Source: a virus
Taxonomy: Duplodnaviria; Heunggongvirae; Uroviricota; Caudoviricetes
Reading direction: 5' to 3' (one strand)
DNA length: 30,900 bases
Virus record (IMG/VR): IMGVR_UViG_2617270950_000011
The notes under the pieces are model-generated. The model had not been told where the DNA came from. It made no database searches and saw only the letters and a program-made list of their open reading frames with translations. Shown here in pieces: positions 3,410 through 28,280 of this stretch. Position numbers and translations under genes: made by a program. The number at the start of each line of letters is the position of its first letter. Position 1 is the first letter of the stretch.

Positions 3410-3427
3410 AGCTGATCCCCTGTTTTT

Positions 3428-8512: not shown

Positions 8513-8526
8513 TACATTTTTCCTGA

Positions 8527-8892
8527 TTACTGGACACGGGTACTGGTGGCGCTGGCGAACTTCGCGGAGATATCACCACCACCGTCAAGCGAGGCCGGTT
8601 CACTGCTCCAGGCCTTCGTCATCATGTGGACTTCACCGGTATCGGCCACGAACTCAATCGTGACCGCAGTCCAGGTGTTGATTTCATCGGCAGCCGGTGA
8701 ACCTTCTCCGCCAGCCGGAAATTTACAGTCCAGCGTCGCCTCACGGGGTTTCTCGCGATAGCCGTAAACTTTCGCGCCTTTCACCACTTCACGCTCAAAG
8801 CCGGACGGGGAGAACGTGGCCCCCTCAAGGGTGTCGTACTCCTGCCCGTTCACACGGATGGTGGCCGTGCCCTGATACTGTTTTCCGCTCAT
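8527..8892 (-). CDS. Tail tube protein
   Basis: 121-aa ORF immediately downstream of the sheath gene. Confidence 0.6.
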   Translation of the reverse strand: MSGKQYQGTATIRVNGQEYDTLEGATFSPSGFEREVVKGAKVYGYREKPREATLDCKFPAGGEGSPAADEINTWTAVTIEFVADTGEVHMMTKAWSSEPASLDGGGDISAKFASATSTRVQ

Positions 8893-8900
8893 GCCTTACC

Positions 8901-10403
8901 TCACAAAATGAAACGGATCTGCGCGGCCATGAAGCGGAACTGGTTAACCAGATCCGGTGTACACATCACATCCAGACGGTTACGGTCTTTTGTGTTGCGC
9001 TCCACGAGCAGATTCTTTTTAAAGGTGTCCAGATTTTCGACCAGTCCCAGATCCACCCATTCTTCCCCCAGCGAAATTAACTGAAGTTTCATGATCTCCG
9101 GTGTCACGATATTCTGACCGGCACGAACGGGCGTCCCGTCATCAGCCAGTTTATGGCGCGGAAAACGCTGCGTGATAAAGGTGCGCAGGGAATAACGCAG
9201 ATATGACAGGGTGTAGATGGTTTCCACATCCAGATAGCTGGGATCGATTTCGCCGTATGCATTCTGACGGTACATCGTCACCTGACGTTCAATCTGCACC
9301 ACATCCGCGGCCGCGACGGTCACCGTGGACATGCCGGTATAAAGCAGGCTGTTTCGCTCTTCCCGCGTCAGACGATCCGGTGCTTCAGGTGCCATACGGG
9401 CAGGCAGCGCCAGTGTCTGTAATGGTCGGGCCGGATCCGTTGACAGGGAGGGCGCACAGACCGCACAAATGGAGGCAGCCCAGACATAATCCGGCTCTGG
9501 TGCTTTAGGAATAGAAGTGCAGGTAAACAGGAAGTCATTACGGGATTCACCAAAACTGGTTGCCGTACCGAAGGTGCCGGTATGCGCCATCCAGACCATA
9601 CCGTCCGACATTTTTACCGGTCCCCAGCGTTTCAGCAGTTCATCCGCCAGAATTTTGAGATTTGCCGCATCCTTATAGGGCATGACGATGTAGTTGTACT
9701 GACGATTCCCCATCCCTGAGACGCTACGGGTGATATCGGGGTTTGTTGCCTTCTGTGTTGGCGCGACGAGCTCCAGCGTAAGACCGGCCGGTGTAGTTTC
9801 ACCGTCATAATAGTTCACCCGTAAATCATGAGCTGAGCATTCACCGATAAAGCGGGCGTTAACCCCCATGCTGCCTTTAAGTCCTTCAGCATTATCACCA
9901 CTGACTTCAGCTGCGATAGCAGTGAATGGCGCATCAGTGTCAGCGTTAATGACCTTAGCCAGCTCTTCCACAAGCTCTTTACCTTTTTTCCCCTTACTGA
10001 CGGGCAGGAGGTAACGGCGACCGCCGATGTAAACACTTAACACCCCGTCTGCCAATGCTGTTCCAATGATATTCATCACGCATGCCCTGGACTGACCTGT
10101 TCCAGCCCCCTGTGCAATGGCATATAACTCTGTGTCAGGGTTAATGGCGATAAATTCCTCTACCATCAGTGCAATCATGGAACCTCGCCCCCAGAGTTCT
10201 CTTGCTTGTGAAGCTCGGGTAATACGTACTGGTACATCAAGCTGACCGCGCCCCTGAATGGTAGTGTCTTTCATTGCAGCCTGACCAAACAACAGTACCG
10301 CCTGACGCTGTGGTGGAGTGCCGGTCACGGCCATTGAATTATTGATTTCAATCTGTACCAGCGGAATGCGATTGTTATCGCCGATATAATCAAAGTTAAT
10401 CAT
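8901..10403 (-). CDS. Contractile tail sheath protein (Mu gpL-like)
   Basis: 500-aa ORF; C-terminus ...DVMCTPDLVNQFRFMAAQIRFIL resembles sheath C-termini; followed by tube, chaperone and tape measure. Confidence 0.75.
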   Translation of the reverse strand: MINFDYIGDNNRIPLVQIEINNSMAVTGTPPQRQAVLLFGQAAMKDTTIQGRGQLDVPVRITRASQARELWGRGSMIALMVEEFIAINPDTELYAIAQGAGTGQSRACVMNIIGTALADGVLSVYIGGRRYLLPVSKGKKGKELVEELAKVINADTDAPFTAIAAEVSGDNAEGLKGSMGVNARFIGECSAHDLRVNYYDGETTPAGLTLELVAPTQKATNPDITRSVSGMGNRQYNYIVMPYKDAANLKILADELLKRWGPVKMSDGMVWMAHTGTFGTATSFGESRNDFLFTCTSIPKAPEPDYVWAASICAVCAPSLSTDPARPLQTLALPARMAPEAPDRLTREERNSLLYTGMSTVTVAAADVVQIERQVTMYRQNAYGEIDPSYLDVETIYTLSYLRYSLRTFITQRFPRHKLADDGTPVRAGQNIVTPEIMKLQLISLGEEWVDLGLVENLDTFKKNLLVERNTKDRNRLDVMCTPDLVNQFRFMAAQIRFIL

Positions 10404-10681
10404 CAGGACGTCCCCTTATCTGATGCTGCGGTTTTTTCAGCCACCGCCGCAGTTTTTTCTGCTACCGCTCCCGCTGGTTTTGCCGCCGCGCCGGTATTAG
10501 CAGTTGTGGCAGCCGGGGCAGGCTCCGCCGTTTTATCCACCACAATGACGTCGCCATCATTAAGACGGCGGCACCAGAACGGAGTGAAGGGTTTCTCTTC
10601 CCCGTCCTGAGAGAGCGGAGTCATCGTGTCGGGATCGCGGATCAGGCATCCCGGCGCAGGTTTAATAAAAATGGTTGTCAT
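10403..10681 (-). CDS. Hypothetical phage protein (Mu gp38-like position)
   Basis: 92-aa ORF with an Ala/Thr-rich C-terminus, ATGA-coupled to the sheath gene. Confidence 0.4.
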   Translation of the reverse strand: MTTIFIKPAPGCLIRDPDTMTPLSQDGEEKPFTPFWCRRLNDGDVIVVDKTAEPAPAATTANTGAAAKPAGAVAEKTAAVAEKTAASDKGTS

Positions 10682-10684
10682 CTG

Positions 10685-11248
10685 TTATTCCTCTGACAGT
10701 CCGGCGTTTTCACCGGCGGCAGTTGCACCAGGCAGACGGATGTGTGCCTTAAATTCCGGCGTGCCTTCCGGTTCGGTAAAGGTTTCGTAATGGCGCAGGA
10801 AATCATCCAGCGAGCTGATATCCGTCAGCGGGTCGATCATTTCCTCGCATGAGAAATACAGGGCGTACATCACGGCACCGCTGCCTGCCTGCGTTTCGGT
10901 GTAACCGTTGACCGCCTTTTCAAAGTAAAGCGGTGAGGTTTTTTCTGCTCTGAAGCCGTCCAGCACGGTAATCAGGCGGGCCACAATCTGATAAAGCCCG
11001 GGACGGCTGACCTCACGGCCATTGAGCATGTCGCCGATGACGTAGAACACCCAGTGACTGACCAGACGCCCACGGGTACGCCCTTCACCGGCACCCAGCC
11101 AGGCAACATAGATAGCCGGGGCGTTAATCAGCATGGTGCGCAGTACGCTGTCGCTCCAGTCGCCGGGATGTGTGTCAACAGACACCAGTTCATTCCCGAA
11201 ATACTCACGGATACGGGCGATGTACGCCTGCTCGGTTTCCGTAATCAT
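10685..11248 (-). CDS. Phage morphogenesis protein (Mu gp37-like, DUF1834-type)
   Basis: 187-aa ORF (MITETEQAYIARIREYFGNELVSVDTHPGDW...) upstream of the sheath; family assignment from memory. Confidence 0.45.
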   Translation of the reverse strand: MITETEQAYIARIREYFGNELVSVDTHPGDWSDSVLRTMLINAPAIYVAWLGAGEGRTRGRLVSHWVFYVIGDMLNGREVSRPGLYQIVARLITVLDGFRAEKTSPLYFEKAVNGYTETQAGSGAVMYALYFSCEEMIDPLTDISSLDDFLRHYETFTEPEGTPEFKAHIRLPGATAAGENAGLSEE

Positions 11249-11372
11249 ATAAAGCCCTTCTGGTTGCGCCCGAACACCGCCGCATCAGACTGCACCTGCG
11301 GTAAATCCCCGGATTCAGGGGCCGCACCGTCTGTATCCACGCCGACCGGCACGTTACCGTTCATGACATCTT

Positions 11373-12518
11373 TCAGCCAGGCCAGCGCCTCACGGTATCC
11401 GAGTAATACAGAAACGGTTTGCCATGATGGCGAATACCGTGCTGTATGGCACCGGCTACGGCGAAAACATTTTCAGCCAGGTCAAGGCTCCAGCCCACCA
11501 CAAAGCGCGTGCCACCGTCGATAACAAAGGTCACTTCCGGTGCGAATGGCCGCCCGTGAACCGGGTGCGCGCATTTCAGCTTCATGCCGTGACCGTCACC
11601 AATCCAGACATAATTCACCGGCATTTTTGACCAGTCGCGGCGCGTGAATCCCTCAAGCTGGCGGTATTCACTGCCGGTAACCCGTCCTTTTTGTTTCACC
11701 ACTTCCGGCAGTTTCTTCATTGCGCGGCGAATGGTGTCATAAGACGGCATGATATCGAGCATATAAGGCTCATCAGCGTGCCGGTGCTGCCATTCGGCAA
11801 CAAAATCCTCGTAAGCCTCGGTCATTGGTCGGCCGTTTGACTGGCGATACTGCGCCAGAAATTCGGGCAACCAGTTAATATCTTCGGCTTTTATTTCCTG
11901 GCGTTTACCTGGTGCCAGCAAAAGCAGGCGTTCAGCAGCGTTCTGTGCCTTATTAAAGGCCGCAATCCAGCGTTTCAGCGTGATTTCACTCAACACGCGA
12001 CTGTTTCCCTTTCTGGCGTTCGCTATCTCAACCATTGCCACAATGCGCTCATCCAGTTGCGAGTGTGACAGGCGGTCAACGATGAACCAGATAGCTTTAG
12101 CGCAGCTGAAACCGGGTTGTTGCGTGAATTTCAGCACCTCACTGACGATCGCAATGCGTGCGTCTGCCACCTGGCGCTGGTTTTCAGTCAGGGCATTGAG
12201 GCGTTCGACCATCAGTTGTGGTGATCCGCGATATGCCTCCACCGCATCAACCACGGCAGACGAGCGTCTGGCCTTTGTCACCACCGGAGCCGGTGATTCA
12301 TCGGCTTTTTGCGTCATCAGTTGCAGGGCATAACGTTCGCGTAATGCCTGCTGTGTCACTTCAGGTAAACAGTCAATGCTGTATTCAAAACCTTTAGCGC
12401 CTTTCTTGCGGCGTCTGCTGGTTTCGCTGGTTGCATACTTCCTGATTGAATAGCGAACGCCTTGCTCCGTTCCCGGCATCCCCGGTAATCCAACCAGTTC
12501 TTTGACTGAAGCAAACAT
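11373..12518 (-). pseudogene. Mu-type DDE transposase (MuA-like), C-terminally truncated after the second catalytic Asp
   Basis: 381 aa. N-terminus has the Mu winged-helix end-binding pattern (SVKELVGLPGMPGTEQGVRYSI...GAKGFEYSIDCLP); WIGDGHGMKL and ...YYSDTVRRWPG* match the first two DDE aspartate regions of MuA (recalled). The catalytic Glu and C-terminal domains are missing, and the next gene is gp37-like, not B. Confidence 0.75.
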
Positions 12519-12520
12519 AA

Positions 12521-12751
12521 TTACGCGACCTTACGAATGTAGCGGCTGGGCCAAATCTCCTCGGGCGGCACCCCCAGGCATTCCGCGATAATCCCCTCAT
12601 ACTTGGGAACATGGCGGTATACCGCGTTGTACAGATTGTTCTGACCCACGCCAGCTTTACGGGCCAGCGCCCTCATGCTTCCTTCTCTGGCTCTGACTTC
12701 CCCCAAAATTCTTTGAGGATGCCAATCAGGCTTAACTTCATTTCTCGCCAT
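12521..12751 (-). CDS. ner: Ner-like DNA-binding regulator
   Basis: 76 aa; ...WHPQRILGEVRAR...ALARKAGVGQNNLYNAV...PEEIWPSRYI matches the Mu Ner/Nlp pattern (recalled); sits immediately upstream of the transposase on the same strand. Confidence 0.75.
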   Translation of the reverse strand: MARNEVKPDWHPQRILGEVRAREGSMRALARKAGVGQNNLYNAVYRHVPKYEGIIAECLGVPPEEIWPSRYIRKVA

Positions 12752-12780
12752 GATTCATCTATCCTAAAAAGTTACGAAAT

Positions 12781-12804
12781 TTGATAACTAAACTTAGTTA
12801 TCAA
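12781..12804. promoter_or_regulatory. Operator-like 24-bp palindrome in the divergent ner/repressor control region
   Basis: TTGATAACTAA-AC-TTAGTTATCAA: 11-bp perfect inverted arms, with further TTGATA half-sites just upstream (~12779) and downstream (~12806); lies between the divergent Ner-like and repressor genes. Confidence 0.5.
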
Positions 12805-12935
12805 GTTTGATATAAGTATTGATCCACTTCTGCTTCATGTAAAGCAAAAAAACATCTTTCTTTTGTCTATTGTGGATCAATGGTTGCTGACAACACTAAA
12901 AGTTAATAATTTCAAATTGATAGGAAGAAAAGAAA

Positions 12936-13481
12936 ATGAACAAGCAAACAACAACATCTCTTTCTTTTCCTGGTGGTAGAAAAGAAAGCATTGCTGAGCG
13001 TCTGAAAAGGCTGATTGGCTCCCGCAGCGTCAGAGCTGCAGCAAGAGATTGGGGGCTTTCATTTTCAACACTAAACAATTATCTGTCTCGTGGCACTGAG
13101 CCATCCTTAAGTGTCGCCCTTCAGATTGCGTCTATCGAAGGAGTAAGTGTTGAGTGGCTATGTGGATTCAGTGATGCATCACAAGTGAATCGGTGCGAGA
13201 TCAAAGAAAATCAAGATGAAAGCAAGAAGATAATTATGACGATTATCAGCGCACTTGATGAAAAAGACTTAGAGCAGCTATCGAAAAATTTGGTTCTGAA
13301 TGGAGCCAAGTACTTAGCTCGGTTGTTAGAGCCTGAAAATCAAGATCTAATCCGCTTAGAAGGAAGGAAAAGAATAGCTGCATTACAGCTTGAAGGTATG
13401 TCTGACGAACGCGTCAGAGAGATTTTGGAAGAAACTGAGAGAAGTCGCAAATCTAACGCGGTAGAACCAAAAGCGGGTTAA
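12936..13481 (+). CDS. Phage repressor with CI-type N-terminal HTH (Phage_CI_repr-like)
   Basis: 181 aa; ...ERLKRLIGSRSVRAAARDWGLSFSTLNNYLSRGTEPSLSVALQIASIEGVSVEWLCG is a CI-type helix-turn-helix; divergent from ner across the operator palindrome. Confidence 0.7.
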   Translation: MNKQTTTSLSFPGGRKESIAERLKRLIGSRSVRAAARDWGLSFSTLNNYLSRGTEPSLSVALQIASIEGVSVEWLCGFSDASQVNRCEIKENQDESKKIIMTIISALDEKDLEQLSKNLVLNGAKYLARLLEPENQDLIRLEGRKRIAALQLEGMSDERVREILEETERSRKSNAVEPKAG

Positions 13482-13555
13482 TAGCATTAGCCCGCATTTT
13501 GCACTATATCGAGTATTTCGCATTGTTTGGAACGCCTTAAAAGACTAAAACCACA

Positions 13556-13711
13556 GTATCAAATGAGTTGCCGATTTTATAATAAATGACTAATTATTGC
13601 ACAATCGGTATCAAATAGACCTTATCCGCACATCTAGCCATCACCTGTTTTATTTCAGTATCTTACAGGTGATTTCACCTCCTTTCACTAAAACCCTTGT
13701 CGGTATCAAAT
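13556..13711 (+). repeat. Three direct copies of GTATCAAAT plus a 9-bp inverted repeat at the repressor/gene A junction
   Basis: GTATCAAAT at 13556-13564, 13608-13616 and 13703-13711; inverted repeat ATCACCTGT / ACAGGTGAT at 13640-13648 and 13665-13673; TTATCCGCA (DnaA-box-like) at 13622-13630. Function unknown. Confidence 0.4.
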
Positions 13712-16768: not shown

Positions 16769-17350
16769 ATGAGCGAAAGGAAAAGAATTGAAGATCAGTA
16801 TCTTCTCTATCATTTAACATGTATGGATAATCTACCTAGTATTTTAGACACAGGATTAAGATCTCGTGCATCAGTAAAAGGTGAGTTTGTTGATGTGGCC
16901 GACGGTGAAATAATAACAGGTCGCGAAGCATTAAATTTGCAAACAATGGTTCCTTTTCATTTCTTTACTAAGAATCCATTTGATGGAAGAGTCCTGAAAG
17001 ATCATAAGGAAAAATCATTTTGTATTATTTCGGTTTGTCGGGCATTTGCCAAAGAAAATGGTTGGAAAGTTATCCCTAAACATCCATTATCCACCAGTTC
17101 TGTTATAGACCTCTTAGATTATGAACAAGGAATGGCCCAAATTGACTGGGAGCTTATGAATATAAGGGATTATAAAAATGCAGAATGCAAATCTGTATGT
17201 ATGGCTGAGTGTTTATCAAGTGTAACGGTCGAGCCGAAAAATTTCCATTGCATCTTTGTCAAAAATGATAACGAAAAAAAATATGTTGAAGGGTTGATAA
17301 AACAACAAGGATTAAGTATATTGATAACGATCAACACTTATATGTTCTAA
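16769..17350 (+). CDS. darT: DarT, DUF4433 ssDNA ADP-ribosyltransferase toxin
   Basis: 193 aa; N-terminal LLYHLTCMDNLPSIL matches the DarT YHITHIDNL signature; VPFHFF and a downstream AECLS (candidate catalytic Glu) motif; followed 4 nt later by a macrodomain gene. Confidence 0.8.
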   Translation: MSERKRIEDQYLLYHLTCMDNLPSILDTGLRSRASVKGEFVDVADGEIITGREALNLQTMVPFHFFTKNPFDGRVLKDHKEKSFCIISVCRAFAKENGWKVIPKHPLSTSSVIDLLDYEQGMAQIDWELMNIRDYKNAECKSVCMAECLSSVTVEPKNFHCIFVKNDNEKKYVEGLIKQQGLSILITINTYMF

Positions 17351-17354
17351 TTCT

Positions 17355-18326
17355 ATGATTAAGTATGCAAGCGGAAATCTTCTAAACTCTACATCGCAAG
17401 CTCTTGTGAATGCTGTAAACTGCCAAGGAGTCATGGGAAAGGGTATTGCTTTGGCTTTTAAAGAAACTTTTCCCTATAATTTCGAAGTTTATAAGAGAGC
17501 ATGCACCACTGGTACAATGAAAATTGGACAGGTTTTAATTGTAGAGGAAAAGGGAAAAATAATCGTAAACTTTCCCACTAAAGATAGTTGGAGAAAAAAA
17601 TCAACATATGATTTTATCTCGCAAGGCCTTGAATCTTTAGCAAAAATTATAGACGAAAAAAAAATTACATCAATATCAATACCACCTTTAGGCTGTGGTA
17701 ATGGGGGCCTCGATTGGAATAAGGTTGAGGCTCTTATTTTAAAAACTTTTCAAAATTTAGATAATGTTGATGTGGTAATTTATCCGCCTGCAACTAACAA
17801 TCAGCTTTCAAAAAATAAAAATGTTATTAATGCTAAGCATCTTTTGGTTCACTACGCCTATGGAAAATTAAAAGTTAAGCAAAAATATTCCCTTTATACA
17901 GTTTTTTATATTTGCGAATGTATTGAGAAAGCAAATCTTTTTTTATTCGATTTTAAACATGGTCGGCCATACTCTTCTGAGTTAGAAAATATTATGAAGG
18001 ATATAGCAAACCTTAAAGTTGAGTTGCAAGGAGATTTTGATGCTTTTATTGAAGATTATATTAATACTCATCAATCCAAAGAGTTACAAACCGAGTTTGG
18101 TAAACTAATCTCAACTTTAAATCCAAGTATAAGTTTTCTCAATGCTCTTAAAAATAAGATTGATTATACAGATAGCGTACATGTGATCACGAGAATTGCT
18201 AAAGAAAAAGATCATGGCTTGCATATTGACAATTTCAAAGAATATGAAAATATTGTGCAGCATTTAATTAAAAATGGATTGGTAATCGAAGATATTTTTA
18301 ACGAACTAAAAATAAAGGGAAGTTAG
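17355..18326 (+). CDS. darG: DarG, macrodomain antitoxin
   Basis: 323 aa; N-terminal ALVNAVNCQGVMGKGIALAFKETFP is a macrodomain signature; translationally coupled to darT (stop 17348-17350, ATG 17355). Confidence 0.8.
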   Translation: MIKYASGNLLNSTSQALVNAVNCQGVMGKGIALAFKETFPYNFEVYKRACTTGTMKIGQVLIVEEKGKIIVNFPTKDSWRKKSTYDFISQGLESLAKIIDEKKITSISIPPLGCGNGGLDWNKVEALILKTFQNLDNVDVVIYPPATNNQLSKNKNVINAKHLLVHYAYGKLKVKQKYSLYTVFYICECIEKANLFLFDFKHGRPYSSELENIMKDIANLKVELQGDFDAFIEDYINTHQSKELQTEFGKLISTLNPSISFLNALKNKIDYTDSVHVITRIAKEKDHGLHIDNFKEYENIVQHLIKNGLVIEDIFNELKIKGS

Positions 18327-18999
18327 TAGCGCTATTTTCAATTTTTTTGCTGAAATTGCGCATGCACACTCTTACGCATTATAGATGCGGCGTTAATCCC
18401 GCCAGGAGTGTTGTTTAATAAATTGAACTATTTCTGCATTGAAGGATCAACTTACGCATTCGCTGACAACGCAGGCACTCTCCTGGCTAAGCAGAAATTC
18501 AGAGTAACCAACTGGCACTTTTACAACAATTTTCTTATCAGTTGCGGCTCCATGACTTTCTGGTGGGATAACAAAGCAATTAAGGCGTGGTATTGTAAGT
18601 ATCCCGCATAATCATGCTAGTAACATTTGTCCCCCATGTAACCTAATTAAGGCAACTTCCGCTCTTCGCTCACAGTGAACCTCCATGTTTGTAAACCCGT
18701 ATATTTCGTTTTTCAAGTGGTCATTCAGATACGGATTTTCACTTCTCTTGGCTGTGCATGTCTATGCCGCATGAATCCGCATGATCGTTTGAGGATCGTT
18801 TTTGCTGAGGCCCCCCAGAACTGGCGGGCTTTTGCTTATGTCATGCAGGTGCATGAAAACCACTGCATAAAGCGGGCAGGCGTGGCGGGGATACGAGCGC
18901 GCGCTAACTCATAAATCTTAGATTATTAGTGGATTTATCTCATTGAAATGTGCACTATTCCCAGCATTGAGTTGTACCAGATGTCTTTATGGAGGGACT

Positions 19000-20766
19000 G
19001 TGGCTTTTGTAACTGATATTCGGCTTGAAGATAATGCTATTGCTGCACCTGCGACAGCACAGGTTATGGCTCAGAGGCTAGGATCTGTATTACGTAAGAG
19101 ATATGAAGAATTCATCCATAAAAGAGAGTGTGCACCAGGCCAAGCAGACTATGATGTAAAAATGGCTAGCAGGGCTTTAGCTGCATTCACTATGTATCAG
19201 TTAGGATGTGTGGATGATAAGTATGCAGGGGAGTCTGTATGTGATAGTAGTGAAGATGGTGGTATAGATGGAATAGCAATCAACCATAACGAAAAAATCG
19301 TTGTTGTTGTTCAATCAAAATTTCACCAATCGGGAAACGGCACTTGGACAAGAGCCGATTTTATGTGTTTTAAGGATGCTTGTGAGAAGCTACAAAGTGA
19401 AAGATACGAATTATTTGATTCCATATTGCAAAATAAAAGCGGGGAAATAAGTGCGGCTTTAAGTAGTTTTGAATACAAGTTCATCTTTGCGATGGCGCAT
19501 ACAGGTAAAAAAGGTGCTGCAGAGGAAATATTAAATGATATGCGGGAATGGCAATATCAATTAAACGCTGCAGCTTTTACACCTGAGGATGAGCCTAAAG
19601 AGAACTGGGGATTTCAGGTTCATTTAATATCCTCTGAAGATATGATGCATTGGTTACAGAATGGCTCTCGAAATCAAATTGATCTTAACAGGGTTGAAAT
19701 TGAGCGTTTTGGATTTTTGAATGAACCATATCAAGCTTTTTACGGGGCTATTAGTGGTGATCAAGTTGCAGAATGGTGGGAAGAGCATGGTGCTCGATTA
19801 TTTACAAAAAACATAAGGAATATGCTTGGTAAAACAGAAGTGAATGAGGAAATAAAAAAGACAGCTATAGATAATCCTGATATGTTTTGGTTTTATAATA
19901 ATGGGATTACTGTACTGGTTAAGGAGGTTGTTCCTCATAGACGAAACGCAGCTCCTAATATAGAGAGAGGGATTTTTGATTTTCGTGATGTAAGTGTCAT
20001 TAATGGTGCACAAACAGTCAGTAGTATTGGCGCATGTAAAGATGCGCTTGGTGAAAACATATATAGACTCAAAGTGCCAGCTAGATTCATTGTTATAGAT
20101 GATGATACTGATAATTTAACTGCAAATGCGATTACAAAAGCTAACAATTTCCAAAATAGAGTATTGGGAAGAGATTTTGCGTCGCAGCAGGCAGATCAAC
20201 ATAGATTGGCAAGGGAGTTAGTGCTTGAAGGATATCAATATCAGTTACTAAGAACAGATGAAGATCATTCACAGACAAATACGAAAGTCATTGACTTGGA
20301 TGAGGCGCTCAATGCACTCGCATGTTTAAGTAAAAATAATACGGTTGTATCGACACTAAAATCAAATCGCGGTAGGTTTTTTGAAAATTTTGAAGGCTCT
20401 CTATATAAAACTATTTTCAATCCAAGATTAAGTGGTTTAAAACTTATCAATACTGTTCTACATTTTAGAGTTATAGATAAGTTGATCGGTAAAACATTAC
20501 TATCAGTAGATAAAACTACCCATAGTCGCAAGCATTTAATTATTACGCATGGTAATAGATACTATGCGTCTGTGCTATTGAGCAACGTTTCTGGGATACA
20601 TAATAGCTCAGAAATTCTTGTTCCAGATGAAAAAAATCTTTCCGAAGAATTAAGTGCATTAATTCAACGTGCTGAAGAGTACATTGAAGATAATTACCCG
20701 AATGCCTATCCGGCAAGATTTTTTGCAAATCCAACGAAAATACAAGAGTTATACGATAATGTTTAA
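19000..20766 (+). CDS. Uncharacterised 58x-aa to 607-aa protein, tentatively AIPR-family with an N-terminal PD-(D/E)xK-like motif; candidate defence gene
   Basis: Maximal ORF 18943..20766 starts at TTG; the GTG at 19000 follows GGAGGG and the ATG at 19066 is an alternative. Motifs seen: DGGIDGIAINHNEKIVVVVQSKF, FWFYNNGITVLV, VINGAQTVSSIG. No Walker A, so not P2 Old. AT-rich. Confidence 0.5.
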   Translation: MAFVTDIRLEDNAIAAPATAQVMAQRLGSVLRKRYEEFIHKRECAPGQADYDVKMASRALAAFTMYQLGCVDDKYAGESVCDSSEDGGIDGIAINHNEKIVVVVQSKFHQSGNGTWTRADFMCFKDACEKLQSERYELFDSILQNKSGEISAALSSFEYKFIFAMAHTGKKGAAEEILNDMREWQYQLNAAAFTPEDEPKENWGFQVHLISSEDMMHWLQNGSRNQIDLNRVEIERFGFLNEPYQAFYGAISGDQVAEWWEEHGARLFTKNIRNMLGKTEVNEEIKKTAIDNPDMFWFYNNGITVLVKEVVPHRRNAAPNIERGIFDFRDVSVINGAQTVSSIGACKDALGENIYRLKVPARFIVIDDDTDNLTANAITKANNFQNRVLGRDFASQQADQHRLARELVLEGYQYQLLRTDEDHSQTNTKVIDLDEALNALACLSKNNTVVSTLKSNRGRFFENFEGSLYKTIFNPRLSGLKLINTVLHFRVIDKLIGKTLLSVDKTTHSRKHLIITHGNRYYASVLLSNVSGIHNSSEILVPDEKNLSEELSALIQRAEEYIEDNYPNAYPARFFANPTKIQELYDNV

Positions 20767-20770
20767 ACTA

Positions 20771-20794
20771 AAGGGAGGTTGCCTCCCTTTTTTT
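20771..20794 (+). terminator. Intrinsic terminator after the 607-aa gene (hairpin plus T-run)
   Basis: AAGGGAGG-ttg-CCTCCCTT followed by a run of T; the reverse strand also ends in a shorter T-rich stretch (possibly bidirectional). Confidence 0.6.
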
Positions 20795-20796
20795 AA

Positions 20797-21321
20797 TTAG
20801 AAATGGTATTCTTGGAATTCAATAACACCTTCTTTTATGAAATTGTTTATTTCTTGTAATCTTTTTTGCAATGGCAATAATTCATTACGTACAAATACTT
20901 TACTCGCCTTCTCTACATCTCCAAAGCCCCCAACATTATTAGGCATTATCCCCATCATTTGCGGCGGCACACGGTGTGCCGCCATCATGTCGTCCCGGCT
21001 CACGTTCTTGATATTTAGAAACTCATCCTTCGCCGCGACTTCTGACAACGGGATAATCTGAAGCCCGTCCTTTTTGCCGTTAGGAGAGTACATAAACAGG
21101 TTGCGGAAGTTGCCTGGCCCTTTGGCGCTTTTCATTGCGTTGCGGAGGTTGTTCACATCTTCTTGGTTCTGCGCGGCATCGGTCATGTACATGATGAAGC
21201 CTGCATGACTACCGTTAATGTAATACTTGCGGCGGAACAGCGTGGCGGACTCGTTGAGCAGGGCCGACGGAATGGCAGAAAGATAACCGGGCAGGCCGTA
21301 GACCTCCTGGTTGATGTCCGG
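20797..21321 (-). pseudogene. Portal protein (P2 gpQ-like) C-terminal fragment
   Basis: Frame open from 21321 down to the stop at 20797; ...AHRVPPQMMGIMPNNVGGFGDVEKASKVFVRNELLPLQKRLQE resembles portal C-termini (recalled). The N-terminal portion is absent. Confidence 0.5.
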
Positions 21322-22244
21322 TTATCGGCTTTGTTGCGCCCACGGTTGAATAGCGCACCGGACCAGAACGGATAAGCACTGTGTGTCAGGCTGGATGGCG
21401 TGGAAAAATAGGTTTGTCGCCATTTCTTGTGAATAGCCATACCGGAAGCCACTTTGCGCAGCTCCTGGAATTTCGGTATCCAGAAATATTCATCCAGATA
21501 CAGGTTGCCGTGATAACTCTGGGCAGTGCGGGCATTGGTGCCGAGGAAGTAAAGCGTGGCCCCGTTAGGAAGCACCATCGGATCGCCTTTCAACTCCACC
21601 TCCACTTCTTTGGCGAAGTCGATGATGTACTGCTTAAAGACGTGGGCCTGTGCCTTGCTGGCGGAAAGGAAAATCTGGTTACGTCCGGTCAGCAGGGCGT
21701 CAATCAGGGCTTCACGGGCAAAGTAAAAGGTCGCGCCGATCTGGCGTGACTTCAGCAGGTTGCGGATGCGGTTGGTTTTTCCGGCTTCCCACCAGTGGCG
21801 CTGGTAGTTGAACATGGAGGAATGGAAGATTTCTTCCAGCTTCTCAATCTGCTCATCGGTGAAAACATTCTTTTCCGGCTGACGGCGTGGGCCTTTGTTG
21901 CGGTTGGCGACGTTAGGGTTTAAGTCGGATTCGTTGCCGCCATTGTTAAACTTGCCGATCCGCGCGTGGCGCTCAGACTGGCGCGCCAGCAGGTCAATCT
22001 CTTTGAAATCTTTCCCTTCTTTGTGCTCCTTCATGATGAGCTGGCAGTAGCGTGCGGCGGTGGTGAGCTGCATCTGATCCAGCGGCCCATAGTCACCCCA
22101 CTTGTCGCGTTTTTTCCAGCTGTGAACGGTTGCAACTTTCTCGCCCAGCATTTCAGCAATGCGGGCTACGCGGTATCCCTGAAAGTACAGCAGCATGGCC
22201 TGCCGACGGGGATCGAGATCTGCGGGTGTCAGTGTGGTGTTCAT
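21183..22244 (-). pseudogene. Terminase large subunit (P2 gpP-like) N-terminal ATPase fragment running out of frame into the portal fragment
   Basis: Walker A-like [12 protein letters not shown] and Walker B-like [10 protein letters not shown]; credible sequence ends near ...[11 protein letters not shown] (~21350), after which the frame reads low-complexity junk to the stop at 21183. The nuclease half is missing. Confidence 0.7.
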
Positions 22245-22290
22245 GGCACAAACCTACAGCCTTGAATGAAGGCTTTCCCCGCCTGCGGTT

Positions 22291-22308
22291 TGTGTGGTTG
22301 TCTGGACA
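22291..22308. promoter_or_regulatory. TGT-N12-ACA dyad (Ogr-type late promoter element) in the gpP upstream region
   Basis: TGTGTGGTTGTCTGGACA; the P2 late-promoter dyad is normally centred near -55. It lies about 50 bp from the gpP start and may be the PP or PO element. Confidence 0.4.
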
Positions 22309-22632
22309 GACGGCATTGGTAATACATCTGGTGTCATTCCAGGCAAAACCATTACGGAACGACAGGCAGCGGAAGGGCTGATCTCCAACGTGCTGCGTGT
22401 GGAGCGGGCGCTGGAAAGGTGTGTGAAGCAACAGCCGCCGCAGAAAGTGTATGACGCGGTGGTGTCATTTGCCTTCAACGTGGGGACAGGCAATGCCTGC
22501 AGCTCCACGCTGGTGAAATTGCTCAATCAGCGGCGCTGGGCGGATGCGTGCCGACAGTTGCCGCGCTGGGTTTATGTGAAAGGTGTTTTTAATCAGGGGC
22601 TGGATACTGGAGCTGAAGGTGTATGTGGATGA
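22294..22632 (+). pseudogene. T4-type (GH24) phage lysozyme fragment, truncated at both ends
   Basis: VSFAFNVGTGNACSSTLVKLLNQRRWADACRQLPRWVYVKG parallels the RrrD-type lysozyme core ([41 protein letters not shown], recalled). The N-terminal catalytic region is missing and the C-terminus reads into the fibre fragment. Confidence 0.65.
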
Positions 22633-23578
22633 CCTGATGGCAAAACACCTTGCCGCACAGGACCCACATTCACAGTATGCACCCAAAGAAAGTCCGACGT
22701 TTACCGGAACCCCCAAAGCGCCAACGCCAGCGGCGGGGAATAATACCACGCAGGTTGCGACCACTGCGTTTGTTCAGGCGGCACTGACGGCCCTTATTAA
22801 TGGTGCGCCAGCCACGCTGGACACGCTGAAAGAAATAGCCGCAGCCATTAACAATGATCCGAATTTCAGTACCACCATTAACAATGTGCTGGCACTAAAA
22901 GCACCGTTGTCGAGTCCGGCACTCACCGGAACGCCAACAGCCCCCACGGCGGCGCAGTCGGTCAACAATACACAGATTGCCACTACAGCTTTTGTGAAAT
23001 CGGCAATTGCAGCAATGGTGGGGTCTGCACCTGCGGCACTGGATACACTGAACGAACTGGCGGCGGCGCTGGGGAATGACCCGAACTTTGCCACGACAAT
23101 GCTTAATGCGCTGGCAGGCAAACAACCGCTGGATAATACGCTGACTAATTTGAGTGGAAAGGATATAGAAGGAATTCTTACTTATCTTGGTTTAGGGCAT
23201 TTGGGAAATGCGGCAGGTAGAAATGTTGGTAATGCTAATAGTTATGAAATCCCTGACATGAGCTATTTTCAGCTAACAGGAAAAGGAAGCGATAATTTGT
23301 TGGTTAAAGGTCCGAATGGTTTAATTATACAAATATTTCGAAGAAATCTTCCTAATAGTACAACTATTGGTATTCCACAACAGCTTCCTATTACATATCC
23401 AACGCCATTCCCTAACGGAGTATGGGGTGTGTTTGTCACAAAAATGACATATGCACAAGTCGTTACGTCGTGCGAAAGTATATATAATGATGGGTTTACT
23501 GCTGTAACTTGTTTGACATCAGGAACCAGCAGTGATTCAAAAGTTTCAGGCGCTGTATTTATTGCATTTGGATATTAA
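22583..23578 (+). CDS. Tail fibre protein, C-terminal portion (N-terminally truncated)
   Basis: VYVDDLMAKHLAAQDPH collar-like motif, then tail-fibre repeat units (TGTPKAPTPAAGNNTTQVATTAFVQAAL..., TGTPTAPTAAQSVNNTQIATTAFVKSAI...ALDTLNELAAALGNDPNF) and a variable AT-rich tip. About 185 residues of an H-type fibre are missing upstream. Confidence 0.65.
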   Translation: MFLIRGWILELKVYVDDLMAKHLAAQDPHSQYAPKESPTFTGTPKAPTPAAGNNTTQVATTAFVQAALTALINGAPATLDTLKEIAAAINNDPNFSTTINNVLALKAPLSSPALTGTPTAPTAAQSVNNTQIATTAFVKSAIAAMVGSAPAALDTLNELAAALGNDPNFATTMLNALAGKQPLDNTLTNLSGKDIEGILTYLGLGHLGNAAGRNVGNANSYEIPDMSYFQLTGKGSDNLLVKGPNGLIIQIFRRNLPNSTTIGIPQQLPITYPTPFPNGVWGVFVTKMTYAQVVTSCESIYNDGFTAVTCLTSGTSSDSKVSGAVFIAFGY

Positions 23579-23580
23579 AT

Positions 23581-24057
23581 ATGAAAAGTTGTGATGATTA
23601 TCAACATGATTCTTCTTATGATTTCATATGGGATAAGGTAAATGCCAGATTTATGGCGTATATATTAAAAAATGAATATGAAAGAAATGGAATGTGGCCT
23701 AAGGAAGGGGTGGATATTTCAAATGAGACTGCTTGTGAATTCATGAAACAACCTCCGGAAGGAAAAATTCTTGGGGCAGATGATAATGGTATGCCTGCAT
23801 GGATTGATACGCCACCACTCACATATACAGAGTTAGTGGCTAAAGCAAAAACTGAAAAACAAGCACGTATAATAGAAGCTGTAAATTATATAAATAACAA
23901 ACAATGGCAGGGGAAAGCATTGCTTGGGAGACTGAATGCTACTGAACTGGAAATGTATAACATATGGCTTGATTATATTGAAGCATTAGAGGCTATTGAT
24001 CCATCAAAAGCCTCTGATACAGCCTTTCCGACTAAGCCATTTAACGATTCAGTCTGA
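23581..24057 (+). CDS. Tail fibre assembly protein (Tfa / gpG-like)
   Basis: 158 aa with the typical C-terminus ...QWQGKALLGRLNATELEMYNIWLDYIEALEAIDPSKA; immediately follows the fibre. Confidence 0.75.
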   Translation: MKSCDDYQHDSSYDFIWDKVNARFMAYILKNEYERNGMWPKEGVDISNETACEFMKQPPEGKILGADDNGMPAWIDTPPLTYTELVAKAKTEKQARIIEAVNYINNKQWQGKALLGRLNATELEMYNIWLDYIEALEAIDPSKASDTAFPTKPFNDSV

Positions 24058-25072
24058 GAATTGGATTAACAAACAACCGATCAATAATCAAGCTTAAACC
24101 AAGGCTGATAAAAAAAATGACTAAAGACAGGGATGTTGTTTTTAGTAAAATGTTGTCCACGATAAAAGGAATATTGAAATATTTCTCTAAGACTCTGAAA
24201 ACACAAACATGAATTAAATAAATTCCGTATGTCAGAGGTGCTATTTTTTCAATGATTAAAATTATTTTTTTATTATTGATGTTTATTTTTGTAAATGCAA
24301 TTACTATCAAGGAACACATTAACAACATATTAATCCCTGAGTCAAATGGGTATATGTTAAAGTTATATTTGTTAACGCTAAAATAAACAAACATCACATG
24401 TAGTAAAAATATAAAAGGGATGCTATATACAATATAATGTGTTTTAATGTCAACTCTTTTTAATAATCCGCCGACAACAAAATATAAAACCCATGTATCT
24501 ATGCTCTGTAATGGGATTAAATGATGGTAGTATTGAGAGGATTGGCTTAGAGAGTATGAGTATAATGAATAATAAAAAATGAAAGCCAAAACTATAATCA
24601 CCTTAAGGCTGTCGGCTTGTGGGATTTTATTGACTATGTATTGAATTGCTGGAGCGGTTAAATACAAACCGATAAAGGCATAAACAAACCAGAAATGCAC
24701 AGAGAGTGAAATAGTGCTTTTAGATATTAATGAGAAATATTCAAGTAAATTCGATGACGTTCCATTATTCCAGCTAATAATATAGTAATGTGCTAATGAA
24801 TATATTACAAAAGGGATAATAATGGCGGGGATTCTTTTTTTATAAAACAAAAGTGGAGTGCTATTTTGTCTGTTGAGTAGGTAGTATCCACTTAACATAA
24901 AGAATATTGGTAAACCAATGCGTACAATTGATTGTGCAAAAAGAGTTTGTATTTGTATACTTTCTGTTTGGTTACTGGTAACAGTATAAGCATAGTCGGG
25001 CGTGACATGAATTCCTATTACAAAAATACAACAAATAATACGTAACAGGTCTAAAGAAATATCTCTTTTCAT
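24041..25072 (-). CDS. Acyltransferase-3 family integral membrane protein (O-antigen/surface glycan acyltransferase-like)
   Basis: 343 aa, polytopic and very AT-rich; N-terminal MKRDISLDLLRIICCIFVIGIHV fits the acyltransferase_3 start (R-x-D-x-x-R ... H). Opposite strand to flanking late genes, in the P2 Z/fun position; its 3' end overlaps tfa by 17 bp. Confidence 0.7.
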   Translation of the reverse strand: MKRDISLDLLRIICCIFVIGIHVTPDYAYTVTSNQTESIQIQTLFAQSIVRIGLPIFFMLSGYYLLNRQNSTPLLFYKKRIPAIIIPFVIYSLAHYYIISWNNGTSSNLLEYFSLISKSTISLSVHFWFVYAFIGLYLTAPAIQYIVNKIPQADSLKVIIVLAFIFYYSLYSYSLSQSSQYYHHLIPLQSIDTWVLYFVVGGLLKRVDIKTHYIVYSIPFIFLLHVMFVYFSVNKYNFNIYPFDSGINMLLMCSLIVIAFTKININNKKIILIIEKIAPLTYGIYLIHVCVFRVLEKYFNIPFIVDNILLKTTSLSLVIFFISLGLSLIIDRLFVNPILRLNR

Positions 25073-25133
25073 ATAGTATTCAATCTGATTTAAATGGATG
25101 ACAGATGCGCAATAGTAAAATAGATTTGCGTAT

Positions 25134-25166
25134 AATAATCAATACATATTGAGATATATTGATTAT
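25134..25166. promoter_or_regulatory. 10-bp perfect inverted repeat upstream of the acyltransferase gene
   Basis: ATAATCAATA ... TATTGATTAT separated by 13 bp, 60-95 bp upstream of the acyltransferase ATG; candidate operator. Confidence 0.3.
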
Positions 25167-25192
25167 TTTATGAAAAGCCCTCATGGCGCTGT

Positions 25193-25210
25193 TGTGCCAT
25201 TTCCCATACA
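25193..25210 (+). promoter_or_regulatory. Ogr-dependent late promoter element (PF-like) upstream of sheath gene FI
   Basis: TGT-GCCATTTCCCAT-ACA (TGT-N12-ACA), centred about 84 bp upstream of the FI start codon, consistent with a -55 dyad and a short leader. Confidence 0.5.
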
Positions 25211-25285
25211 ATCCCCATCGCGTGCACCCTGCGCGTATCAACCAGAACATAGGCAGACCCCCTCTACAACCGGAGAGACTGCCTT

Positions 25286-26458
25286 ATGGCTCAGGATTAC
25301 CACCACGGAGTGCGCGTTGTTGAAGTCAACGAAGGCACCCGATCCATTACCACGGTGAGCACCGCCATCGTGGGCATGGTCTGCACGGGCGATGATGCCG
25401 ATGCAAAAATGTTTCCTCTTAATAAACCCGTGCTGATCACTGATGTGCTGACTGCCAGCGGTAAAGCGGGTGAGTCCGGCACGCTGGCCCGTTCGCTGGA
25501 TGCCATCGCTGACCAGGCAAAACCCGTGACCGTTGTTGTGCGTGTGCCGCAGGGTGAAACGGAAGAAGAAACCACAACCAATATCATTGGCGCAGTGACC
25601 GCCGAGGGTAAAAAAACAGGTATGAAAGCCCTGTTATCTGCCCAGTCACAGCTCGGCGTTAAACCGCGCATTCTCGGCGTGCCGGGTCACGATAACAAAG
25701 CCGTTGCGACTGAGCTGCTGAGTGTGGCGCAAAGCCTGCGCGGGTTTGCTTACCTGTCAGCGTATGGCTGCAAGACAGTGCAGGAGGCGATCACTTACCG
25801 TGAAAACTTCAGTCAGCGCGAAGGGATGCTGATCTGGCCTGACTTTACTGGCTGGGACACGGTGCTGAATGCCGAAGCAACGGCATATGCCACCGCCCGT
25901 GCGCTCGGTCTGCGCGCCAAAATTGATGAGCAGACCGGGTGGCACAAGAGCCTGTCCAACGTAGGCGTGAACGGTGTCACCGGAATTTCTGCTGATGTGT
26001 TCTGGGATCTGCAGGACCCGGCAACCGATGCGGGACTGCTTAACCAGAACGACGTCACCACGCTTATCCGCAAAGACGGTTTCCGCTTCTGGGGTTCCCG
26101 CTGCCTGAGTGATGACCCGCTCTTTGCCTTCGAAAACTACACCCGCACGGCGCAGGTACTGATGGACACGATGGCAGAAGCGCATATGTGGGCGGTGGAC
26201 AAACCGCTGAACCCGTCGCTGGCCCGCGACATTATCGAAGGTATTCGCGCCAAAATGCGCAGCCTGGTCAGTCAGGGCTATCTCATTGGTGGTGATTGCT
26301 GGCTGGACGAGTCGGTGAACGATAAAGACACGCTGAAAGCCGGAAAACTCACCATCGATTACGACTACACGCCAGTACCGCCACTTGAAAACCTGATGCT
26401 GCGTCAGCGCATCACCGATCAGTACCTGGTGAATTTCTCCAGCCAGGTAAGCGCGTAA
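25286..26458 (+). CDS. Contractile tail sheath protein (P2 gpFI-like)
   Basis: 390 aa (P2 FI is about this size); in the FI position ahead of the tube gene; GGAGAG ribosome-binding site. Confidence 0.75.
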
Positions 26459-26467
26459 GGGGGCAAC

Positions 26468-27736
26468 ATGGCTTTACCACGTAAATTAAAACATCTGAAC
26501 CTGTTTAACGACGGGAACAACTGGCAGGGGATCGTAGAGTCGCTGACGCTGCCGAAATTCACCCGCAAATATGAGAAGTATCGCGGCGGCGGTATGCCGG
26601 GGGCGGTGGATGTGGATCTGGGACTGGATGACGGCGCACTGGATACTGAATTTTCCATTGGCGGTACTGAGCTGCTGCTGTTTAAGCAGATGGGCAAAGC
26701 TACGGTGGATGGCATCCAGCTGCGCTTTACCGGCTCTATCCAGCGTGACGATACCGGGGAAGTGCAGGCCGTGGAGCTTGTGGTGCGTGGACGTCACAAA
26801 GAAGTGGATTCCGGCGAGTGGAAGACGGGCGAAAGCAACACCACCAAAGTGACCAGTACCAACAGCTACGCGAAGCTGACCATCAATTGTGAGGTGCTCT
26901 ACGAAGTGGACCTTATCAACATGGTGGAAATTGTGGACGGTGTCCGGGCGCGAAGTGCTGATTTTCGGGAAACGCTGAATACCCGCCGTGAAAAATCGTG
27001 GCACAAGACCACAGTTGGGGAAGTGGTGAAGGAAATAGCCGCGCGTCACAAGCTGAAGATGGCACTGGGTAAAGACCTGTCAGATAAACCCGTGGAACAT
27101 ATAGACCAGACTAATGAGAGTGACGGCAGTTTTCTGATGCGGCTGGCGCGCCAGTACGGTGCTATTGCGTCGGTGAAAAATGGCAATCTGTTATTCATTC
27201 GGCAGGGACAGGGTAAAAGCGCCAGCGGTAAACCACTGCCGGTGATCACTATCACACGTAAGGACGGCGACAGTCACCGCTTTACCCTGGCAGATCGCGG
27301 ATCTTACACGGGCGTAATTGCCAGCTGGTTGCATACCCGCGAACCCGCGAAGAAAGAAAGCACCACGGTGAAGCGTAAGCGCAGGACCGCAAAGCAGAAG
27401 AAAGAGCCGGAAGCGAAGCAGGGCGATTACCTGGTGGGTACGGATGAAAACGTGCTGGTACTTAATCGTACTTATGCCAACCGGGGCAACGCTGAACGAG
27501 CGGCGAAAATGCAGTGGGAACGCCTGCAACGCGGCGTTGCGTCATTCTCGCTACAACTGGCGGAAGGGCGGGCAGATCTCTACACGGAAATGCCAGTGAA
27601 AGTCAGTGGCTTTAAACAGCCGATAGATGATGCGGAATGGACCATTACGACTCTGACACATACCGTCAGCCCGGATAATGGTTTTACGACCAGTCTGGAG
27701 CTTGAAGTGAGGATTGATGATTTCGAAATGGAATGA
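26468..27736 (+). CDS. In-frame fusion of tail tube FII (N-terminal ~145 aa) to tail protein D (C-terminal ~275 aa)
   Basis: N-terminus MALPRKLKHLNLFNDGNNWQGIVESLTLPKF is tube-like; from RARSADFRETLNTRREKSWH...HIDQTNESDGSFLMRLARQYGAIASVKNGNLLFIRQ the sequence is gpD-like (recalled). The FII 3' end, E/E', T, U and D 5' end are absent. Confidence 0.7.
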   Translation: MALPRKLKHLNLFNDGNNWQGIVESLTLPKFTRKYEKYRGGGMPGAVDVDLGLDDGALDTEFSIGGTELLLFKQMGKATVDGIQLRFTGSIQRDDTGEVQAVELVVRGRHKEVDSGEWKTGESNTTKVTSTNSYAKLTINCEVLYEVDLINMVEIVDGVRARSADFRETLNTRREKSWHKTTVGEVVKEIAARHKLKMALGKDLSDKPVEHIDQTNESDGSFLMRLARQYGAIASVKNGNLLFIRQGQGKSASGKPLPVITITRKDGDSHRFTLADRGSYTGVIASWLHTREPAKKESTTVKRKRRTAKQKKEPEAKQGDYLVGTDENVLVLNRTYANRGNAERAAKMQWERLQRGVASFSLQLAEGRADLYTEMPVKVSGFKQPIDDAEWTITTLTHTVSPDNGFTTSLELEVRIDDFEME

Positions 27737-28045: not shown

Positions 28046-28125
28046 CGCTGCCGCCATTTTGTCGCCATCGTTAAAAAACAGTTCTTCTAACATCATGATT
28101 TTAAACGGTATAAATTTCAGGCAAC

Positions 28126-28168
28126 AAAAAACCCATCAACCTTGAACCGAAATGGCGGGGTTGATGGG
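28126..28168 (-). terminator. Intrinsic terminator downstream of ybjL
   Basis: 10-bp perfect stem (CCCATCAACC / GGTTGATGGG, 28132-28141 and 28159-28168) followed on the minus strand by TTTTTT (28131-28126). Confidence 0.5.
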
Positions 28169-28280
28169 CTCCACAAAATGGGGACATCAAAGAAAAGCAG
28201 TGGCACTAATTAAGACTGATGCCCTGCGGAAAAGTTCTGCGGTTGTGCAAAAAAATTTCATTTTCAGGGCAACTTCAGTT

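Follow-up and report, generated by a model that had tools for sequence, protein, structure and literature searches.

A divergent AbiU/AIPR-family gene beside the cos site of a degraded P2-like prophage is a candidate single-polypeptide anti-phage defence

Which function is carried by the long, AT-rich open reading frame (ORF) that lies between the cos region and the portal gene of a degraded P2-like prophage, and does its product act alone? The question has been raised by an earlier note on a 30,900-nt stretch of DNA (IMG/VR virus record IMGVR_UViG_2617270950_000011; 'the window' denotes this whole stretch), in which the ORF was put forward as an uncharacterised, under-described defence gene. 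We find that it encodes a divergent member of the AbiU/AIPR family, and we give a rough probability of 0.6 to the reading that it is a single-polypeptide candidate anti-phage defence, i.e., a phage-triggered nuclease carried as a self-contained cargo cassette in the cos-to-portal interval. To call the gene under-described has been an overstatement, as RefSeq already names its product an AIPR family protein and the exact accession, WP_021542068.1, is entered as 'AIPR' in Table S5A of the paper from which the definition of the gpA-gpQ hotspot in P2-like phages derives (Rousset et al. 2022, PMC9122126). The gene is real, but it is an already annotated and catalogued member of a known defence family, ordinary rather than new.

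Membership in the AIPR family has been established by the Pfam/PADLOC profile check that the earlier note had proposed. The Pfam AIPR model (PF10592) aligns with residues 268-563 over profile positions 1-305 of 308 (7e-35, 121.5 bits against a gathering cutoff of 25; residue numbering throughout is that of the 588-aa protein read from its GTG start). The AbiU model of PADLOC (PDLC02357; according to a 2026 paper, AbiU is also included in DefenseFinder) reaches an E of 7.4e-25 and 86 bits over model positions 45-512 of 537 (87% of the model), and PHROG 1841, annotated as 'Abi alpha-like abortive infection mechanism', matches at 8e-173. The motifs quoted in the earlier note are all present, DSSEDGGIDG at residues 82-91, VVVVQSKF at 101-108, FWFYNNGITV at 296-305 and VINGAQTV at 333-340. 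On the AbiU model, the 86 bits of the window protein compare with 385 bits for a Staphylococcus plasmid homologue (2e-115, full-length) and 228 bits for the AIPR of Salmonella phage RE2010 (8e-68). Since both motif sets, the D..D..D...QxK series and the AIPR core, recur in these two proteins, the window protein, judged from its sequence, is a divergent AbiU/AIPR member with the canonical AbiU design of nuclease plus AIPR. Its 588-aa subfamily is mainly gamma-proteobacterial with some cyanobacterial members and keeps a conserved extra N-terminal segment, while a search for the family as a whole has yielded 4026 clusters (50% identity) at E<=1e-3, of which 425 remain at E<=1e-30, the proteins being mostly full-length with 550-590 aa.

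Two other assignments have been considered and set aside. The statement that the protein is not Old has held, as the OLD-family signature of an ABC-type ATPase with Walker A plus Toprim is absent from the window protein in motif and Pfam searches: no Walker A motif is present, and Pfam gives no ATPase/AAA or Toprim match. A component of the MZA system has likewise been rejected; MzaE shares the AIPR core with the window protein (NCBIfam NF041935 and PADLOC MzaE matches), but the match is restricted to ~150 residues of this core and scores 58 bits against an equivalog cutoff of 1050 (NF041935), the rest of MzaE is unmatched, and no MzaA-D genes have been found at the locus.

The protein divides into an N-terminal domain, the AIPR core and a C-terminal domain (Table 1). 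For the first of these, a PD-(D/E)xK-like nuclease signature had been claimed, and the claim is borne out by the predicted fold and by the conservation of the D/Q/K residues, while the Pfam Mrr_cat match stays below threshold. An AlphaFold2 model built from 53 sequences of two subfamilies (mean predicted local distance difference test score 84, predicted template modelling score 0.70) presents the alpha-beta-beta-beta-alpha-beta core fold of the superfamily, and in its secondary structure D90 directly precedes the strand 91-95 and Q105 and K107 lie within the strand 100-107, a modelled placement that is canonical for PD-(D/E)xK enzymes of the D...QxK variant. This form of the active site is known from Mrr/MspJI enzymes, in which the Q-variant occurs in active members. 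In the 103 homologues compared, which share 24-40% identity with the window protein, no substitution occurs at D82, D86, G88 or D90, and Q105 and K107 each reach a conservation of at least 90%. The same holds for the second part, in which the AIPR core motifs FxxNNGIT, NGAQT and NNxQNR have been recognised and in which N271, R273, N300-N301-G302, N335-G336-x-Q338 and N383-x-Q385-N386 are invariant in the 103 homologues and all present in the window protein.

A Foldseek search of the model against the PDB has given nothing significant, and PDB sequence searches, made with the single sequence and with the 53-sequence profile, have found no relative. The nuclease-fold matches of the model vanish once the N-terminal 224 residues are removed, and they therefore belong to the N-terminal domain. 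At the sequence level, Pfam Mrr_cat (PF04471) is positioned exactly at the catalytic motif with a sub-threshold score (E 0.05, 14.2 bits against a cutoff of 21), and 2 of the 53 family members match it at E<0.1. Compared with the nucleases of the MspJI/AspBHI/Mrr/FokI type, to which its sequence similarity is sub-threshold, the window protein shows a reversed domain order with the nuclease placed N-terminally, and it pairs this nuclease with AIPR instead of an SRA-like or winged-helix reader. Column entropy peaks at residues 521-560, the most variable segment of the protein in close and distant alignments alike, a pattern that a recognition surface would be expected to show. Five residues, H40, C44, C81, C128 and C442 (window 19117-20325), are invariant within the 588-aa subfamily, and of these the wider AIPR family keeps just C442; a subfamily-specific metal site or disulfide formed by these residues is possible.

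For the AIPR core, a ParB/sulfiredoxin-like fold has been weakly suggested by the model. In the domain-only structure search, PadC and sulfiredoxin remain among the matches with almost their full length aligned, although generic helical matches rank higher, and the strand-NGAQT-helix element of the core resembles the strand-DGQQR/GxxR-helix of the ParB/Srx fold. On this basis the core might tentatively be regarded as a highly diverged nucleotide- or DNA-binding switch of the ParB/sulfiredoxin fold, and the AbiU/AIPR proteins as domain-swapped analogues of the GmrSD/BrxU type, a proposal that we hold to be doubtful. In the same tentative picture, the strand-NGAQT-helix would replace the DGQQR/DGQHR/GxxR element of DUF262, DndB and ParB, and, with no greater confidence, a nucleoside-triphosphate-gated module would govern an Mrr/MspJI-type nuclease rather than an HNH nuclease. 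Comparison of the family profile with BrxU and plasmid ParB by hhalign has given probabilities below 1%, in a test that is weak as its targets are single sequences, and searches of NCBIfam, PADLOC and Pfam with E values as high as 10 have returned no DndB, DGQHR or DUF262 match. DndB's N-terminal domain has been described as related to AIPR (Makarova et al. 2012, PMC3506569). If true, the ParB-like picture would provide the AbiU family, with its more than 4000 50%-identity clusters, with a testable mechanism.

The ORF itself is present as the earlier note described it (18943-20766, plus strand, 607 aa in its longest form from TTG), and its AT-richness has been confirmed (GC content 0.367, against 0.53-0.55 in the flanking gpA and terminase DNA). 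The start had been left ambiguous between TTG 18943, GTG 19000 and ATG 19066, and it is settled at GTG 19000 because the conserved N-terminus begins there and none of the aligned homologues extends to the TTG. The 17 aligned homologues, which are 52-87% identical, come from Enterobacterales, Pseudomonas, Vibrio, Shewanella, Aeromonas and cyanobacteria and all keep the N-terminus MAFVxDIRxEDNAxAAxATA (17/17), and this stretch corresponds to the 22 residues that lie between the GTG and the ATG. TTG 18943 has been rejected as start, with 0/17 homologues reaching that far upstream, and so has ATG 19066, which would cut off the conserved segment although the PHROG profile starts there. A Shine-Dalgarno sequence precedes the GTG (Table 1), and the NCBI annotation pipeline (PGAP), which names the product 'AIPR family protein', uses the same start. 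At the other end, the ORF closes in the strong terminator that had been noticed, the hairpin of which starts 3 nt past the stop codon and occupies the position of the P2 terminator tQ, which adjoins Q in P2. The promoter scan has found no sigma-70-like promoter between cos and the start codon, its sole nearby match being placed at 19007-19035 inside the AIPR gene, and Rfam and tRNA scans have given nothing relevant to the AIPR locus.

The position of the gene has required a correction, as it had been placed in the tin/old position of P2, immediately downstream of DarTG. P2 has its old and tin genes between gene A and cosR, and its cosL-to-Q interval of ~167 bp holds just tQ. The AIPR gene sits across cos from the tin/old slot, in the cos-portal (cos-Q) interval, and it is consequently DarTG that fills the A-cos slot while the AIPR gene fills the cos-Q slot; a gap of 673 bp, which holds an IS5/IS1182 remnant and cos, separates it from DarG. 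The cos element has been located by alignment against the circularised ends of the P2 reference (right-end/cos/left-end junction), in which the 19-mer of the window lines up column for column with the annotated 19-nt cosL/cosR of P2 between conserved flanks. It is identical to the 19-mer of Salmonella phage RE2010, similarity to P2 and RE2010 ceases 8 nt past it, and by homology it would be a functional cos. A scan with the P2 19-mer at <=3 mismatches has given no match, as the homologue carries 5 mismatches and is found by alignment. The same interval holds a 22.6%-identical AIPR in RE2010, annotated 'prevents superinfection', and an unrelated two-gene cargo of a hypothetical protein and a STAS-like protein in Escherichia coli LR-46. 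As read from these comparisons of window 18754-20796, P2-like phages carry two independently assorting cargo slots flanking cos, A-cos and cos-Q. Old/tin and the AIPR gene are alike as cargo of the lysogenic-conversion type beside the cos of a P2-like phage, and differ in lying on opposite sides of it and in the missing ATPase and Toprim domains of the AIPR protein. The gpA-gpQ 'hotspot' therefore needs to be parsed as two slots, since unrelated neighbouring cargos may otherwise be merged into false multi-gene systems.

This applies directly to DarTG, for which one may consider the AIPR protein to be a third component or accessory, both acting as one unit. The gene does follow DarG on the same strand, in the window as well as in strain E423, yet the 673-bp gap with its IS5 remnant and cos speaks against a single unit, as does the behaviour of the two cargos in other genomes. 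The identical AIPR protein, always beside the portal gene, follows DarTG, ComF-like, DUF2971 or AAA+HNH cargo, and it stands behind a KAP_NTPase cargo in Table S5A of Rousset et al. 2022 (PMC9122126), which makes four upstream cargos other than DarTG. Conversely, LR-46 carries a 100%-identical DarTG+IS5+cos block with a different cos-Q cargo, and the homologues in other contexts lack a neighbouring DarTG. The two cargos therefore assort independently, by which the accessory role has been effectively refuted and is left extremely improbable. As to DarTG itself, the DarG start is probably ATG 17355 (323 aa), 4 nt past the DarT stop, from which the PADLOC DarG model aligns from residue 1, and the PGAP gene model, a 297-aa 'macro domain-containing protein', is shorter, with its start at the position that corresponds to 17433. 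The IS5/IS1182 remnant accompanies DarTG at 98-100% identity in several AIPR-less E. coli genomes (window 18327-18753).

The copies in E. coli have been informative on how the gene is maintained. It is found in 12 of 5426 complete genomes, with the portal gene adjacent in 12/12, and homology of the other AIPR-carrying genomes to the window begins at the cos block (18754-18905). The coding sequences differ by 2-5 nucleotides, every one of them synonymous, and the cos-to-start interval varies at one position, whereas the 120 bp upstream of cos vary at 18-28. The unit of cos, gene and terminator has the look of a cassette that was exchanged recently and that is under purifying selection. A decaying, non-functional remnant of a dying prophage, which the heavy degradation of the surroundings might suggest (portal and terminase fragments, a left arm replaced by Mu-like DNA), is very improbable in view of the intact ORF, the purely synonymous differences, the presence of every family-invariant residue and the occurrence of an identical protein in three further genomes examined, where the head, lysis and first tail genes of the P2-like prophages are all complete by annotation. 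The earlier note had taken retention in a stripped prophage as a sign of selection; that the gene is intact stands, but as a sign of selection it is weak evidence, since the identical protein occurs in prophages with those genes annotated as complete too.

Beyond E. coli, the gene has been found in very different contexts. Klebsiella and Cronobacter carry homologues with 74-81% identity in lambdoid prophages, next to replication genes, the Cronobacter copy being upstream of ninB, and in Aggregatibacter phage S1249 a 35%-identical AIPR follows a CI-like repressor at 25 bp on the same strand (S1249 record 4233-6614). The latter placement is rexAB-like and suggests co-expression with the repressor in lysogens, by analogy with lambda rexAB. 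Other homologues occupy islands bordered by integrases in Pectobacterium, where PDDEXK_4 and RES genes are also present, and in Vibrio parahaemolyticus, a Pseudomonas homologue stands alone, and further ones are plasmid-borne. No conserved neighbour gene has been found across the examined homologue contexts, and the description of the gene as a single-gene, standalone system is upheld across P2-like, lambdoid, island and plasmid settings. A defence or moron gene that is self-sufficient and moves horizontally would be expected to show such a distribution.

For the mechanism of the candidate defence, we infer the defence phenotype, a DNA substrate and triggered activation as follows. The N-terminal Mrr/MspJI/FokI-type PD-(D/E)xK domain (D...QxK) would be the effector, with a putative nuclease activity; the AIPR core and the C-terminus would hold this nuclease silent until a phage cue, either a phage protein or a nucleic-acid form, is recognised; and the released nuclease would cut DNA and block phage gene expression and replication. 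Activation via oligomerisation is plausible, given the fold match to FokI-type domains, which act as dimers when they cut double-stranded DNA. A regulating or sensing role of the AIPR core and the C-terminus is proposed because both halves of the protein are strictly conserved, because residues 521-560 are the most variable, and because a precedent exists in Upx, a single-protein PD-(D/E)XK defence which is the nearest to AbiU-1 in a published tree and which is auto-inhibited and freed by a phage protein (PMC13099982). Upx (Gao_Upx) resembles the window protein as a single-gene nuclease defence, here with a solved structure, and differs from it in its ~1200 residues, its two nuclease domains and the missing AIPR domain.

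More direct relatives have been described in other hosts. AbiU of Lactococcus lactis (AbiUi/AbiU1) is, like the window protein, a single polypeptide of ~540-590 aa on mobile elements in which an N-terminal D..D..D...QxK precedes an AIPR core (NNG, NGxQT, NxQN), although the window protein matches the AbiU model weakly and its subfamily has the extra N-terminal segment mentioned above. By itself, lactococcal AbiUi gives modest resistance (efficiency of plating 0.1-0.01) and phage transcription is delayed; the 2026 review that summarises these data lists the AbiU mechanism as unknown and reports that AbiU, as modelled by AlphaFold, can be superimposed on FokI (PMC13064643). A 2024 preprint counts a Vibrio AbiU with the defence types that it reports as verified, and it also validates a phage anti-defence directed at this AbiU (bioRxiv 10.1101/2024.06.14.598830). 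In E. coli, an AIPR of a P4 satellite (pFR77, close to P0173) is 33% identical to the window protein, has the same three-part architecture and lies, as here, in a cos-adjacent hotspot of the P2/P4 system, but belongs to a subfamily of 561-565 aa that includes the S1249 protein, whereas the window protein falls in the 588-aa subfamily.

Several points weigh against a phage-triggered defence nuclease. The Q residue of the predicted catalytic motif stands where an acidic residue is expected, and the activity is putative; Mrr_cat support at the sequence level is sub-threshold, and the N-terminal domain is assigned to the fold and superfamily, not to Pfam Mrr_cat; and lysogenic expression is only presumed, as the promoter scan shows no sigma-70-like site upstream of the start as far as cos. 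The defence role of the window protein and of the 588-aa subfamily is drawn from relatives, of which the P4-satellite AIPR, carried with its native promoter on pFR77, is listed among 'additional tested systems' and was not validated on eight coliphages (PMC9122126), a negative result that says little about the window protein because their identity is just 33%. Finally, the computed evidence does not separate abortive infection from direct restriction.

The last point leads to the main rival, a type IV-like, modification-dependent restriction in which the core and the C-terminus would bind modified or non-self DNA and the nuclease would cut it, conferring direct immunity with neither cell death nor an activation step. 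We regard it as unlikely, while several features would suit it: the D...QxK variant of the Mrr/MspJI family, the fold matches of the model to AspBHI, MspJI and Mrr with BrxU among the weaker ones, and the fact that a prophage-borne enzyme of this kind would spare the unmodified DNA of host and P2. AIPR genes are moreover frequent in restriction-modification operons, some AIPR proteins bearing an N-terminal HEPN domain instead (PMC2292703, PMC3506569). Lactococcal AbiU, however, acts on phages not known for hypermodified DNA, with delayed transcription as its phenotype (PMC13064643), the ParB-like link is marginal, and the P4 AIPR, though just 33% identical, was not among the systems validated on the eight-phage panel.

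A negative result on a panel of unrelated phages would also suit a narrow target range, and thereby a gene that serves the phage rather than general defence, either as a nuclease in competition with P4-like satellites and rival P2-like phages or in cos-side processing. Such a role would agree with the position directly beside cos, a region that P2 and P4 share and compete over, with the occurrence of AIPR genes in the cos-adjacent hotspot of P4 satellites too, and with the observation that hotspot systems can act on P2 relatives (Rousset et al. 2022, PMC9122126). It is nevertheless improbable, as homologues reside on elements that lack a P2-type cos (lambdoid prophages, plasmids and chromosomal islands), and as P2 itself, with its cos-Q slot empty, can do without the gene in its life cycle.

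Read as a candidate triggered nuclease, the protein belongs to a family, AbiU/AIPR, that occurs in phages, plasmids and chromosomal islands and ranks with the more widespread of the single-gene defences. The compact, E. coli-native cassette (~1.9 kb from cos to terminator) in a tractable host, together with the candidate catalytic residues, would offer a convenient model for the AbiU mechanism. The value of the locus is accordingly a practical one, in that it provides clear mutational targets in a member of this family.

Table 1. Coordinates of the AIPR gene, its predicted domains and the flanking features in the window
Feature	Position	Strand	Remarks
AIPR/AbiU-family gene	19000..20766	+	588 aa, GTG start, = RefSeq WP_021542068.1
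N-terminal PD-(D/E)xK nuclease-fold domain	19000..19671	+	residues 1-224
Putative catalytic motif	19243..19323	+	D82-x3-D86-x-G-I-D90 ... Q105-x-K107
AIPR core	19672..20334	+	residues 225-445
C-terminal all-helical domain	20335..20763	+	residues 446-588; predicted secondary structure
Shine-Dalgarno GGAGG	18991-18995	+	4 nt upstream of GTG 19000; read from the sequence
Intrinsic terminator	20770-20790	+	9-bp stem, 5 G-C pairs, T-run; separates the convergent AIPR and portal genes
P2-family cos block	18754..18905	.	~150 bp, shared at 89-95% identity with 85 records of P2-like phages; bounds the cos-Q slot on the left
cos 19-mer homologue GGCGTGGCGGGGATACGAG	18879..18897	+	14/19 identical to P2 cosL GGCGAGGCGGGGAAAGCAC
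Truncated portal (gpQ) fragment	20797..21192	-	partial Pfam Phage_portal match; PGAP partial portal in E423; right boundary of the slot
DarT	16769-17350	+	PADLOC DarT 2e-36; A-cos (tin/old) slot
DarG	17355-18326	+	PADLOC DarG 5e-80; A-cos (tin/old) slot
IS5/IS1182 transposase remnant	18483..18590	+	PGAP pseudogene in the 100%-identical E423 record; between DarG and cos
RybB small RNA gene	28123-28201	-	Rfam RF00110, 105 bits; right prophage edge, beside ybjL

In the left part of the window (1-13700), 12.5 kb with a GC content of 0.58-0.63 carry Mu-like tail and baseplate genes, all on the minus strand, the products of which include Gp48, Baseplate_J, GP46, gp44/GpP, DNA_circ_N, tape measure, sheath and Gp37. 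They are followed by a 381-aa protein with a Mu DNA-binding domain (11373-12518) and by a helix-turn-helix protein (12936-13481). The P2 gpA ORF begins only at 13697 and counts 672 aa, against 804 aa in E423. From the sequence, the P2-like left arm (int, CI and the gpA start) seems to have been replaced by the Mu-like element, with a junction at ~13500-13700.

On the right, a degraded P2-like side (20797-27736) begins with the portal fragment abutting a terminase gpP fragment (21183-22244), beyond which lie a lysozyme-like fragment and the tail fibre and tail-fibre assembly genes. A low-GC acyltransferase gene on the opposite strand (24041-25072, local GC content ~0.31) is followed by a tail sheath gene and a fused tube/gpD-like ORF. 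Over this region the window is 100% identical to E. coli E423 and LR-64-2, but the matches span just 88-90% of it, and deletion patterns therefore differ between strains. At the right edge of the prophage, the RybB small RNA gene lies beside ybjL (Table 1), and this edge may be the attachment region of the P2-like element.

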